This document shows positions 11,198 to 39,817 of a stretch of DNA of 39,817 nt, in pieces (the stretch's first letter is position 1; every line of letters begins with the position of its first letter). The notes under the pieces were generated by a model that was given only the letters and a program-made list of their open reading frames with translations, did not search any database and was not told the DNA's origin. Made by a program: the position numbers and the translations under genes. Source of the DNA: Escherichia phage TM1; sequence record MT808983.1; one strand, written 5' to 3'.

Positions 11198-11413
11198 ATG
11201 ATTAAACTTATCGAATTTCTTGGTCGTCTGGTGGTGCGTGGTTATCGTCGTGCTGCGGTACTGGAACGAAAGGTAGAAAAGAAGAATGCTGACGGTGCGA
11301 CTGATGCTGCTGCTCTGGCTGACAAGCTGACCATCGCGTCACTGGAAGCTGGCATGAAGGCACGTCAAGCTGACACCAAAGCTGACCAGTTGGCTCAGTT
11401 CTTCAAAGCCTAA
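11198..11413 (+). CDS. Small alanine-rich protein (71 aa), unknown function
   Basis: Strong SD AAAGGAGAA; its stop codon TAA lies inside the next promoter. Confidence 0.55.
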   Translation: MIKLIEFLGRLVVRGYRRAAVLERKVEKKNADGATDAAALADKLTIASLEAGMKARQADTKADQLAQFFKA

Positions 11414-11431
11414 ACTATCACCTTAGGGATG
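11408..11431 (+). promoter_or_regulatory. Phage-RNAP promoter variant (taaACTATCACcTtAGGGat)
   Basis: Two substitutions in the -4/-3 region; upstream of the tRNA-like element and the primase-helicase gene; probably weaker. Confidence 0.45.
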
Positions 11432-11476: not shown

Positions 11477-11555
11477 GTCTCCATAGCTCAAACGGTAGAG
11501 CGGCGGGTCATGATGGCCTATTGCGATTAGGGTTCGAATCCCCGTGGAGACGCCA
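11477..11555 (+). tRNA. tRNA-like element (possible degenerate tRNA, candidate anticodon CAT; anticodon arm ambiguous)
   Basis: Perfect 7-bp acceptor stem (gtctcca/tggagac), T8, D-arm gctc-aaacggta-gagc with GG, T-loop GGTTCGAATCC, discriminator G and encoded CCA; but 26 nt between the D- and T-arms with imperfect anticodon stem pairing. Confidence 0.4.
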
Positions 11556-15688: not shown

Positions 15689-16003
15689 ATGGGAGGTGTA
15701 GCAACCTTACGCTTCCATAAGATGCCTACTGGATGTATCGTCTGTGTATCTCACAAGAGGAACCAAGATGGATACTTTCGGTACACGGTAGGATCTGCCC
15801 GTAAGCCAGGACGCAAGGCGTTTATGTTTCACCGATGGGTGTGGGAACAGAAGCGCGGGCCTATACCAGATGGCTATGAGATAGACCATTTGTGTTTGAA
15901 TCGTGGGTGCTGTAACGTAGAGCATCTGCAATGTATTCCAAAGCGTGAGCACGTCATCAAGACGAACCGTGAGCGCAAACTTGTCAAGAAGGAGTGTCAC
16001 TAA
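15689..16003 (+). CDS. HNH homing endonuclease (104 aa)
   Basis: FHRWVWEQ...IDHLCLNRGCCNVEHLQCIPKREH (H-N-H motif); SD AAGGAGG; occupies the T7 gene 5.3 position. Confidence 0.85.
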   Translation: MGGVATLRFHKMPTGCIVCVSHKRNQDGYFRYTVGSARKPGRKAFMFHRWVWEQKRGPIPDGYEIDHLCLNRGCCNVEHLQCIPKREHVIKTNRERKLVKKECH

Positions 16004-16320
16004 TGGCTATGACAAAACGTATGCGAGTTTCGTTCTCGCTGTGTACTGTATTATCAACTAAAGACATCGAGGGCCTCAATGGGGCTCTCTGCAAGCTGAG
16101 TCGTAAGGTTCTGAACGGAGAGAAGACCACTGGCTTCGAGCGTAAGATGGTAGAGGTAGGTGTTACAGAGGGTATGGAAGCTGTGGTAGAGCTTGTCTTA
16201 AAGAAAGGCATTGTTGACGGGCTGAAAGAAGATCTTACGTCCTACTCAAATAAGCCCAGCTTCGGAGATTTCAGAGTGGAGTTCAAGCTATCTCCTGCTA
16301 CTGTACGGGAGGTGTTCTAA
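16003..16320 (+). CDS. gp5.5-like protein (105 aa)
   Basis: Starts MAMTKR, as recalled for T7 gp5.5; position after DNA polymerase and HNH; ATG overlaps the upstream stop. Confidence 0.55.
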   Translation: MAMTKRMRVSFSLCTVLSTKDIEGLNGALCKLSRKVLNGEKTTGFERKMVEVGVTEGMEAVVELVLKKGIVDGLKEDLTSYSNKPSFGDFRVEFKLSPATVREVF

Positions 16321-16439
16321 TGGCTATCAAGCGTATCAAGAATAAGAAGGAGTGCGACCACTCTTTCGTAGTTAAAGGTGTCATTGGTTTTGCTGCCGAG
16401 AGTGTATTAAATGTGGATATTTTGAGGTTCAAGCAATGA
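16320..16439 (+). CDS. Small ORF (39 aa), unknown
   Basis: SD GGGAGGTG 7 nt upstream; ATG overlaps the previous stop (TAATG); very short. Confidence 0.3.
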   Translation: MAIKRIKNKKECDHSFVVKGVIGFAAESVLNVDILRFKQ

Positions 16440-16645
16440 GTGAATACTTACGGGTCCTAGCGGCCCTTAAGTCCTGCCCGAAGACATTTCAGTCCAACTA
16501 TGTGCGCAACAACGCTGCACTTGTGGCTGAGGCTGCGAGTCGTGGACATCTAAGCTGCCTGTCTATGGATGGGCGTAACAACGGTGCGTGGGAGATTACC
16601 GCTGCTGGCACCAAGTTCCTGAACCAACACGGAGGCTGTCTATGA
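16436..16645 (+). CDS. gp5.7: gp5.7-like protein (69 aa)
   Basis: MSEYLRVLAALKSCPKTFQSNYVRNNAALVAEAASRGHLSC...GAWEITAAGTKFL, near-identical in pattern to recalled T7 gp5.7. Confidence 0.85.
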   Translation: MSEYLRVLAALKSCPKTFQSNYVRNNAALVAEAASRGHLSCLSMDGRNNGAWEITAAGTKFLNQHGGCL

Positions 16646-16770
16646 GCCTGAAAGGTCTATTTGCATCTAGGTTAAAGTGTAAAAAGTGTGGACAACATCC
16701 TATGCTGGAGGGATATGCTGGCAGCTCATACTGGTGGTGTCTCAAATGCAACAAGGAGGTGAAAGAATGA
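16642..16770 (+). CDS. Small zinc-ribbon-like protein (42 aa, CxxC...CxxC)
   Basis: MSLKGLFASRLKCKKCGQHPMLEGYAGSSYWWCLKCNKEVKE; SD GGAGG; overlaps its neighbours by 4 nt at each end. Confidence 0.45.
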   Translation: MSLKGLFASRLKCKKCGQHPMLEGYAGSSYWWCLKCNKEVKE

Positions 16771-17636
16771 CTTCGAATAAGAAGATAGCTATGGTGCTGG
16801 ATGGTGACTATCTGGTCTTCTCTTCTATGGCTGCTGCTGAGGACGAGACAGATTGGGGCGATGATATTTATACCCTTATCTGCGATCATGCCAAGGCTCG
16901 TCGTATCCTTGAGAACACCATCGCTGAAATCGTTAAGAAGCGCAAGGCGTGGAAAGACGCTAAGATTGTGATGTGCTTTACTGACGATAACAACTGGCGT
17001 AAGGACGTTCTGCATACCTATAAGGCCAACCGTAAAGGTTCTCGCAAGCCTGTAGGTTACAAGAAGTTCGTAGCCGAAGTGATGGCTGACCCACGGTTCA
17101 ACAGCTTCCTACGTCCTACGCTTGAGGGCGATGACTGTATGGGTATCATCGGGACCCGACCTCAGATTGTTGGCTGTGACCATGCGGTTCTGGTGTCCTG
17201 TGACAAGGACTTCAAGACAATCCCGAACTGTGAGTTCTACTGGTTGACCACTGGTGAAATCCTGAGTCATACTACTGCCGAGGCAGACTACTGGCACATG
17301 GAGCAGACCATCAAGGGTGACCCTACAGATGGCTATGGTGGCATTCCGGGGATGGGTGAGGACACCACTCGTGCGTTCCTTGACGAGCCGTACTACTTCG
17401 TGCAGGAGAGCCGTGAGCTTAAGACTGGCAAGAACAAAGGCCAGATTAAGACTGAGTGGAAGAAGTATCCGAAGCGTGAAGACATGACGCTGTGGGACTG
17501 CATGGTTACACTGGCTGCGAAGGCTGGCATGACCGAGGAGGAACTTCTGGTCCAAGCTCAGGTCGCTCGTATATGTCGAGCCTCCGACTATGACCCTAGG
17601 TCCAAGGAGGTCATCCTGTGGACACCATCCATGTAA
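16767..17636 (+). CDS. gp6: 5'-3' exonuclease (T7 gp6 homolog)
   Basis: CDHAKARRILE, KANRK, PVGY, LEGDDCMGII, SCDKDFKTIPNC, HMEQTIKGDPTDGY, LWDCM...AKAGMTEEEL, collinear with T7 gp6; start taken at ATG 16767 (SD AGGAGG). Confidence 0.93.
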   Translation: MTSNKKIAMVLDGDYLVFSSMAAAEDETDWGDDIYTLICDHAKARRILENTIAEIVKKRKAWKDAKIVMCFTDDNNWRKDVLHTYKANRKGSRKPVGYKKFVAEVMADPRFNSFLRPTLEGDDCMGIIGTRPQIVGCDHAVLVSCDKDFKTIPNCEFYWLTTGEILSHTTAEADYWHMEQTIKGDPTDGYGGIPGMGEDTTRAFLDEPYYFVQESRELKTGKNKGQIKTEWKKYPKREDMTLWDCMVTLAAKAGMTEEELLVQAQVARICRASDYDPRSKEVILWTPSM

Positions 17637-17762: not shown

Positions 17763-17786
17763 ACTAAACTATCACTATAGGGACTT
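17763..17786 (+). promoter_or_regulatory. Phage-RNAP promoter (taaACTATCACTATAGGGac), phi6.5 position
   Basis: Family consensus; predicted +1 G at 17780. Confidence 0.8.
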
Positions 17787-26088: not shown

Positions 26089-26111
26089 CTTATTGAATGG
26101 CCTATAGATTT

Positions 26112-26135
26112 ACCTTAACTATCACTATAGGGACT
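26112..26135 (+). promoter_or_regulatory. Phage-RNAP promoter (ttaACTATCACTATAGGGac), phi13 position
   Basis: Family consensus; predicted +1 G at 26129. Confidence 0.8.
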
Positions 26136-26174
26136 ATAGGCCCTTTAAGTTATAATACTTTAATAGGAGACTTT

Positions 26175-26657
26175 ATGTATATTCGTAAAGCTACGGAACC
26201 AGATGTCCACTACTTTCTCTGGCATCTTTCGGCAGATGATGTTAATGAGTGCAAAGCAAACTATGGGTCAACCGTGGGTCTCTCTGAAAGACTGCTTAAG
26301 CACCTATCTCCGTCATCTGTGGTTTTAACGAACGGTGTAGGCGAAGTGTTTGCCTATGGTGGCAGCCAAGGGGATAACGTATGGTTTTTGACTTCAGGTC
26401 TGGTCAACAAGCTGAGACCTAAAGAGAAGCGAGAGTTCATAAAGCGTATCTCTGAGTACAGGGACTTAATGTTAGACCAATACGGGACCATCTGGAACTA
26501 CGTGTGGTCAGGCAATAAGTCTCACATTAAATTCTTGAAGTTGCTTGGCGCTAAATTCCATGATGATTGGACTATCAGTCCGGTAACTGGTGAGCGTTTT
26601 CAATTATTTACTATCTCTAAGGAGGACGTATGTGTGAACCAGTATCCATCGGTCTAG
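26175..26657 (+). CDS. gp13-like internal virion/assembly protein (160 aa)
   Basis: ATG 26175 with SD AGGAG downstream of the phi13-like promoter (the longer track ORF from 26097 would span the promoter); position between gp12 and gp14. Confidence 0.6.
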   Translation: MYIRKATEPDVHYFLWHLSADDVNECKANYGSTVGLSERLLKHLSPSSVVLTNGVGEVFAYGGSQGDNVWFLTSGLVNKLRPKEKREFIKRISEYRDLMLDQYGTIWNYVWSGNKSHIKFLKLLGAKFHDDWTISPVTGERFQLFTISKEDVCVNQYPSV

Positions 26658-39638: not shown

Positions 39639-39817
39639 TCACAGTTCAAGAACCTCAAGTCTCCCCATAGGCCCTCTTTTAGTCCAGACCAAAGGCCCTA
39701 CCCCAGTCTATCATAAGGTGGGACCGATGGTCAAGACTTCAGGTCAACGATAGGTTGAGGCTATGGCTGGAGGTCGGGACGATAGGTAGGGACTATGGGT
39801 CTGCCTCTAAGTCCCTA
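39639..39817. repeat. Right direct terminal repeat, identical to 1-179
   Basis: Sequence tcacagttcaag...ctaagtcccta matches the first 179 nt of the window. Confidence 0.85.

Follow-up and report, generated by a model that had tools for sequence, protein, structure and literature searches.

A small zinc-ribbon gene in the 5.7/6 slot of Escherichia phage TM1 is very probably a mobile accessory gene rather than a gp5.9 analogue

What is encoded by the short open reading frame (ORF) lying between gene 5.7 and the gene 6 exonuclease of Escherichia phage TM1, in the slot where T7 and T3 carry gene 5.9? The window analysed here is the whole 39,817-nucleotide (nt) stretch of record MT808983.1, a T7-type genome of the Kayfunavirus kind, nearest to the K1F-like group; it is complete, since it carries exact 179-nt direct terminal repeats (1-179 and 39639-39817). 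The ORF, at 16642-16770 on the plus strand (ATG at 16642-16644, TGA at 16768-16770), specifies the 42-residue product MSLKGLFASRLKCKKCGQHPMLEGYAGSSYWWCLKCNKEVKE, with the cysteine pairs CKKC (C13-x2-C16) and CLKC (C33-x2-C36). The only other C-x2-C...C-x2-C motif encoded on the plus strand of the window is the zinc-binding domain of the gp4 primase. We conclude that the ORF is very probably a real, mobile accessory gene for a zinc-ribbon protein, and not an analogue of gp5.9. A preliminary description of the window had given this ORF and its cysteines exactly; its coordinates and its assignment to four-cysteine (C4) ribbons hold, as does its placement of the ORF between gp5.7 and an exonuclease, which PHROG 1334/17900 and PHROG 107 matches confirm. 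The locus comprises:

16436-16645, plus strand: gp5.7-like gene of 69 residues (PHROG 1334, 7e-39; PHROG 17900); its stop codon TGA at 16643-16645 overlaps the ribbon gene's ATG
16631-16635, plus strand: Shine-Dalgarno sequence GGAGG of the ribbon gene, recognised by sequence, 6 nt 5' of the ATG
16642-16770, plus strand: coding sequence of the 42-residue C4 zinc ribbon, stop codon included (intact homologues, ratio of non-synonymous to synonymous rates, dN/dS, well below 1, AlphaFold2 model)
16678-16689, plus strand: first zinc knuckle, codons C13-K-K-C16 (C-x-K-C; C13, K15 and C16 invariant)
16729-16749, plus strand: Y30-W31-W32 and the second knuckle C33-L-K-C36 (invariant columns; a [FY]WWC..C signature is also present in the remote relatives P0011 and P0012)
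16753-16761, plus strand: codons K38-E39-V40 (AAGGAGGTG), which double as the gp6 Shine-Dalgarno sequence, 7 nt before the gp6 ATG
16767-17636, plus strand: gp6 5'-3' exonuclease (PHROG 107, 3e-78; Pfam 5_3_exonuc_N), whose ATG overlaps the ribbon gene's stop as ATGA

Homologues of the upstream gene, 99-100% identical, are labelled gp5.7 in the CLB_P1 and ST66 records.

By comparison of its copies, the ORF is a real gene under selection. A tblastn search with the ribbon protein matched 31 phage records at E <= 2e-7, and further copies were present in metagenome, protein and contig collections; each of the 20 copies that were read is an intact ORF, 40-46 residues long, with a Shine-Dalgarno sequence. 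Among nine diverse members 20 positions are invariant: M1, S2, L3, G5, L6, C13, K15, C16, P20 and L22 in the first half, and G24, G27, Y30, W31, W32, C33, K35, C36, E39 and V40 in the second. By the Nei-Gojobori method synonymous sites are saturated among the copies and dN lies at 0.07-0.45, with dN/dS of 0.09-0.29 for comparisons of finite dS; the window and PGX1 genes are separated by 22.5 synonymous and 10.5 non-synonymous differences. Cysteine codons are split evenly across the copies (TGT/TGC 43:44), and Leu3 is written by five different codons, the N-terminal MSLxGL being kept nonetheless. Because these codons vary freely, conservation of the gene is at the protein level, and for MSLxGL purely so. 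An Rfam scan of the locus matched no RNA family.

What fold does the product adopt? AlphaFold2, given an eight-sequence alignment, returned a model (predicted local distance difference test, pLDDT, 73.6) with a helix at residues 4-9 and strands at 21-25, 28-33 and 38-40. The order of its elements (helix, knuckle C13-C16, two strands, knuckle C33-C36, last strand) is that of a classical zinc ribbon, so that the predicted structure combines the two C-x2-C knuckles and the three-stranded ribbon of a C4 zinc ribbon. A single zinc would sit on C13, C16, C33 and C36 and stabilise the mini-domain. Foldseek searches of the PDB returned ribbon folds exclusively, none significant (E >= 0.28): the top match was the N-terminal ribbon of the NUDIX protein 3cng (TM score 0.58, root-mean-square deviation 2.4 A, 33 residues), and eL43, RNA polymerase small subunits, eIF2-beta, YfgJ and HVO_0758 were also matched. 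The one significant match in BFVD was the family's own uncharacterised PHB19 protein. No family-level match was obtained in Pfam, PHROGs or NCBIfam, where sub-threshold matches were scattered over many unrelated ribbon families, and a sequence-profile search of the PDB gave generic sub-threshold ribbons only and no family for the protein. With generic C4 ribbons (eL43/L37ae, Rpo12, TFIIB, NUDIX/NudC, YfgJ, Haloferax HVO_0758) it thus shares two knuckles and a three-stranded ribbon; it differs from them in that matches stay at Foldseek E >= 0.28 and hidden Markov model (HMM) E >= 0.001, and in the MSLxGL and YWW motifs, which are specific to the family. All members carry a net charge of +1 to +5 (isoelectric point 7.7-9.3). 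Two candidate sources were rejected. A remnant of an HNH endonuclease finds no HNH match in Pfam or PHROGs, and the family HMM misses the window's HNH ORF (15689-16003); the IS1595-type transposase ribbon (PF12760) matched two or three members, at best with 16-18 bits (E 0.0002-0.01) where the cut-off is 25.4, and there is no transposase context. The literature on the ribbon family and on T7-like accessory hot-spots yielded nothing specific.

Word-indexed searches of large protein databases, together with an HMMER search run exhaustively on 1.84 billion representative proteins, recovered 7 family proteins in 4 clusters; beyond the family, matches in the large databases were limited to the weak multi-ribbon proteins P0009, P0011 and P0012, those to P0008 and P0010 being repeat-translation junk. 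Zero relatives were found in 185,579 species-representative bacterial and archaeal genomes, and a bacterial origin was rejected, as the sole 'Enterobacter asburiae' ribbon protein sits on a T7-like phage contig. Family members are rare and confined to phages, the carriers being T7-like phages of Enterobacterales.

Within these phages the gene occupies three unrelated junctions. Site A lies behind gp5.7 or gp5.9 and ahead of gp6 or another cargo ORF (the window, 216Ecol046PP, metagenome contig L026, Ninurta, PHB19, PGX1, Citrof5, Przondovirus KpV763, L016, L019, L029 and L030). Site B is the gp13/gp14 junction of other Kayfunaviruses (SH5, EclP26, Dev2, ESh23 and L031-L034). At site C, in Molineuxvirinae-type Klebsiella phages (F5M1D, L015, L027 and L028), the ribbon gene follows a dATP/dGTP-pyrophosphohydrolase-like gene and is itself followed by a 64-residue ORF and a ligase. 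About 246 records share the window's 5.7/6 flanks; besides the window, only 216Ecol046PP has the ribbon gene there. The ESh23 copy first seemed to lie on the opposite strand and proved to be at the ordinary gp13/gp14 site of a poorly annotated record (L003, ON528733.1): a minus-strand 'nonfunctional terminase' annotation covers the real plus-strand gp12, gp13, ribbon and gp14 genes, and the record stops 66 nt into gp14.

How does so small a gene enter such tightly coupled junctions? Filled and empty alleles can be compared at two sites, one of them empty in the window:

26619-26632, plus strand: empty alternative insertion site, the gp14 Shine-Dalgarno sequence and ATG (AAGGAGGACGTATG), identified by junction comparison, with flanks labelled gp13 and gp14 by Pfam

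With a slash for each junction, site B of the window reads ...AAGGAGGACGTATG/TGTGAACC, with the gp14 ATG at 26630, and the filled allele of SH5 reads ...AAGGAGGACGTATG/AGCCTT...CGGGAGGTGAAAGATG/TGTGAACC; in SH5, EclP26, ESh23 and Dev2 the cassette is at exactly the gp14 Shine-Dalgarno-ATG position. Site A is empty in ST31 (...CACGGAGGCTGCCTGTGA/GCGAAAAG) and filled in the window (...CACGGAGGCTGTCTATGA/GCCTG...AAGGAGGTGAAAGAATGA/CTTCG). From these clean junctions it follows that the unit, about 125 nt long, begins at the resident start codon and ends just before the restored one. The cassette takes the resident Shine-Dalgarno sequence for its own translation; the gene that it displaces is supplied with GAGGT, which lies within the [KR]EV codons of the cassette. 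The counterpart of GGAGG at 16631-16635 drives gp6 in insert-free relatives, and the left flank of the empty ST31 site is identical. GAGGT is present in 20 of 20 copies, as is the Glu codon GAG, and the next start codon follows 5-8 nt on; the conservation of KEV is therefore at least partly at the nucleotide level. The Shine-Dalgarno-N6-ATG repeats that flank the cassette may offer microhomology for its gain and loss. At site B the cassette also touches the upstream gene: gp13 overruns gp14 by 28 nt in the window (26097-26657), and in carriers (L002 1046-1504) it stops at the ATGA, minus its last 8 codons, so that insertion alters the gp13 C-terminus.

The ribbon gene is absent from ST31, CLB_P1 and ZG49 despite 99-100% (gp5.7) and 95-98% (gp6) identity of the flanking products to those of the window. 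The window protein is 81-86% identical to copies in Ningirsuvirus and T3-like phages, where DNA polymerase and gp6 reach just 50-59%, and 71% identical to site-B copies of its own genus. Furthermore, the DNA match to Ninurta ends exactly at the 3' end of the cassette, and the G+C content of the cassette is 43%, that of the genome 50%. Presence and absence between near-identical flanks, the excess of cross-genus identity, the match boundary and the lower G+C content all argue for lateral exchange, and the comparison of sequences supports movement of the gene as a compact cassette.

More generally, the 5.7/6 junction is a hot-spot for cargo genes in Kayfunaviruses. It is empty in ST31, and holds a 78-residue gp5.8 (PHROG 6163, distantly gp5.9-like) in CLB_P1, a 110-residue acidic protein (PHROG 18166) in ST66, a 150-residue protein (PHROG 4382) in ZG49, and a frame-broken, decayed remnant of the ZG49-type cargo in LS2. 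These alternative cargos share the slot and the ATGA-coupled style with the ribbon gene; those of CLB_P1, ST66 and ZG49 are unrelated to it, acidic and longer. In Dickeya phage Ninurta (L006 1626-1988) an ST66-type acidic ORF stands downstream of the ribbon gene and has an extra cysteine-rich N-terminus (MSHYDCKKCGAYPTCDC...) similar to the ribbon's first knuckle; this extension may be a scar of recombination or may form a second mini zinc site.

What, then, might the protein do? Since 42 residues around one zinc are too small for an enzyme, it would act by stoichiometric binding and not by catalysis, and the idea of a nucleic-acid-binding or host-interfering factor, raised at the outset from sequence, is plausible. 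The reading that we prefer, a mobile ribbon gene whose product binds nucleic acid or the DNA-processing machinery, is the best overall explanation, held tentatively and close to evenly poised; for that mode of action taken by itself we would say that it is quite possible without being probable. The protein would confer a conditional, host-dependent benefit through nucleic acid or a DNA-processing enzyme complex. A partner of this kind is suggested by the positive charge, the invariant knuckle lysines, the aromatic residues, the timing of expression and the remote relatives; the Tyr-Trp-Trp strand should be partly exposed because the domain is so small. As to context and timing, two of the three genomic contexts are replication or repair modules, and the window's copy is part of the class II transcription unit, which runs from the promoter near 11410 to the next promoter (17764-17781), just past gp6:

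11410-11427, plus strand: phage-type promoter, variant CTAAACTATCACCTTAGG, repeat family D1/D2, which opens the class II unit gp4-gp6 including the ribbon gene

About 11 phage-RNA-polymerase promoters with the core CTAAACTATCACTATAGG were seen in the window (2568, 6097, 7755, 8626, 11410, 17764, 20585, 21565, 26114, 33400 and 39042). Site B lies shortly behind the one at 26114, amid late virion genes. The ribbon gene was never found in the early region, which points to a function needed in the middle or late stages and not at DNA entry.

The remote relatives were matched at library-wide E values of 3e-4 (P0011) and 7e-4 (P0012). P0011, encoded on metagenome contig L024 (4001-5425), has three tandem CK[KT]CG...GGS[FY]WWCSHC ribbons fused to an RNase_T/DnaQ-type exonuclease; its gene adjoins an IS3-type transposase. 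In P0012 the ribbon is N-terminal, and the gene has that of a Rad52-like annealase on one side and those of an AAA_25 helicase and PolB on the other; its AlphaFold2 model, from a single sequence, is confident over the ribbon only (pLDDT 85-93).

Several points weigh against this nucleic-acid or DNA-machinery reading. The ligand is something that we infer, and zinc coordination is itself predicted from the motif and the model. The matches to P0011 and P0012 span only about 30 residues, the ribbons of P0011 are acidic, and the gp13/gp14 site belongs to a structural module, not to DNA metabolism. A patchy distribution over hot-spots is just as typical of anti-defence genes. Finally, host proteins are the targets of all three neighbouring gene products, those of 5.5, 5.7 and 5.9.

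The last two points lead to the strongest rival, in which the ribbon blocks a host protein, for example one of a late-acting abortive-infection or nuclease defence, much as is seen with other tiny proteins of phages. It would explain why the gene is sporadic, present or absent between near-identical flanks, why it shares its slot with gp5.9-type and other acidic accessory proteins, and why it keeps company with inhibitors of host factors. It fits less well that no copy lies in the early region, the home of anti-restriction genes, and that its basic charge is unlike that of DNA-mimic inhibitors. We regard it as a serious but unlikely alternative. A precedent is Enki of Vibrio phage 1.080.O, a 52-residue zinc ribbon that inhibits AbiH and a retron (10.1101/2024.06.14.598830); likened by description only, both are very small phage zinc-ribbon accessory proteins, and Enki differs in phage family and host. 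The fuller version, in which the gene is a plug-in counter-defence cassette whose Enki-like product neutralises a late-acting host defence or nuclease through a basic, aromatic face, is speculative and rather doubtful. Under it the 125-nt unit could land on any T7-like Shine-Dalgarno-ATG junction and leave translation of the essential gene undisturbed; if true, it would amount to a new anti-defence family and would give, as a minimal design rule, the way in which genes can move in strictly lytic phages.

The remaining explanations survive less well. In one of them the ribbon would be a primase-type zinc-binding domain that has become detached and acts in trans on the gp4 primase-helicase, modulating or complementing it. 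The likeness to the T7-type gp4 domain (PF08273) is real in that the same genome holds a domain of the same knuckle spacing (C-x2-C-G, 15-16 residues to an aromatic residue, C-x2-C); weak matches to 'toprim-like' and 'twinkle' phage proteins, a match of one of 13 members to Pfam Zn_Ribbon_Prim (PF08273, E 0.019) and the position of P0012 directly upstream of a replicative helicase point the same way. That helicase, however, has no recognisable primase domain, no primase structure is among the top 50 PDB fold matches, and the family profile scores just 2.7 bits (E 6.3) with the gp4 domain. The ribbon is moreover free-standing, with another N-terminal extension and a similarity that is not significant, and this explanation is improbable.

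A Lar-like restriction-alleviation protein is still less probable. Lar proteins (PF14354/TIGR03655) are likewise phage-borne small C4 ribbons with a C-x2-C-G ... aromatic-C-x2-C pattern; two family members and P0012 gave sub-threshold matches to Pfam Lar_restr_allev (E 0.001-0.02), one of 13 members matched TIGR03655 (E 0.036), and the weak relative P0009, with 29.3 bits, scores above the 28.6 that Pfam sets as the cut-off for Lar. All matches of the family itself fall under the curated cut-offs: the window protein has no Lar match at E <= 1, the best member (E 0.0012-0.008) stays below 18 bits with the cut-off at 28.6, and the matches cover positions 4-33 of the 58 in the model, whose C-terminal half has no counterpart. 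A dozen unrelated ribbon families match equally well, and the ribbon gene is probably expressed in the middle or late stages, not early.

Does the ribbon replace gp5.9 as a RecBCD inhibitor? Like T7/T3 gene 5.9 it is a short accessory gene placed between 5.7 and 6 and coupled in translation to the genes on either side, and the window holds no gp5.9 homologue: tblastn with four gp5.9-type queries found no gp5.9-like coding in any frame of the whole window (E > 0.1 throughout). The resemblance ends there. The ribbon has four cysteines and a basic charge, gp5.9 no cysteine and a strongly acidic one, and the ribbon lacks the composition of an acidic DNA mimic that the D/E-rich 5.9 proteins have. 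The ribbon protein has no match to PHROG 4790, 6234 or 9014 at E <= 1, and BLASTP against the 5.9 proteins of PHB19, PGX1 and KpV763 found nothing. Nor is occupancy of the slot mutually exclusive: in PHB19 and PGX1 the ribbon gene directly follows a gp5.9/RecBCD-inhibitor gene (PHROG 4790 at 1.5e-17, also 6234 and 9014), and in KpV763 it precedes a gp5.9-family gene (PHROG 6234, 1.9e-24). The ribbon occurs, furthermore, at two other loci, and siblings such as ST31 leave the slot empty. The preliminary description was thus right that the sequence is unrelated to gp5.9, and the gp5.9 role that it implied is contradicted by coexistence, by the other loci and by the basic charge. A functional replacement is highly improbable; the gene appears, from its sequence contexts, to be an extra accessory gene independent of gp5.9.

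The weakest alternative, that the ORF has no protein function and is spurious, an HNH-type gene remnant or a translational-coupling spacer, could appeal to its tiny size, to its lack of annotation in SH5, Ninurta, KpV763, Citrof5 and 216Ecol046PP and to the next gene's Shine-Dalgarno sequence in its 3' end, but it is the least credible of all and is essentially excluded by the signature of selection given above (low dN/dS at saturated dS, invariant cysteines and MSLxGL with freely varying codons), full length being kept in three genomic contexts and neither HNH nor other larger proteins showing similarity to it.

The ribbon family is missing from Pfam, PHROGs and NCBIfam, and half of the GenBank records that carry it leave it without annotation; recognising it improves the annotation of therapeutic Escherichia, Klebsiella, Enterobacter and Citrobacter phages. 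TM1 and ST31, a near-isogenic pair with and without the gene, give a natural comparison for a host-dependent benefit. The borrowing of an upstream Shine-Dalgarno sequence and its replacement in the cassette's own last codons make a tidy model of gene swapping in packed, coupled lytic genomes, and the design could be copied in phage engineering. Current understanding is not overturned: the protein belongs to a well-known structural class, and its gene forms a neatly built mobile cassette.

Three further features were seen in the window. An HNH homing-endonuclease gene (15689-16003, plus strand; Pfam HNH_3, 6e-19; PHROG 1872) lies between DNA polymerase and gp5.5 and is missing in several close relatives, where coverage of that stretch is incomplete. 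Between gp5.5 and gp5.7, a 39-residue ORF (16320-16439, plus strand) lies within about 150 nt that ST31 and L026 lack, an insertion with the direct repeat GAGTTCAAGC (16281-16290) / GAGGTTCAAGC (16425-16435) at its flanks; its relatives, in the 5.5 region of 10 phage records, cover only the first 25-30 residues, so that it may be a truncated remnant of an accessory gene. Finally, a tRNA-like gene (11477-11555, plus strand) stands just past the promoter near 11410 and directly upstream of the gp4 primase-helicase gene. ARAGORN calls it tRNA-Met (CAT), the Rfam tRNA model scores it at 36.5 bits, and the stretch is at least 95% identical in 144 phage records; in a few of these it carries the annotation 'tRNA-OTHER'.

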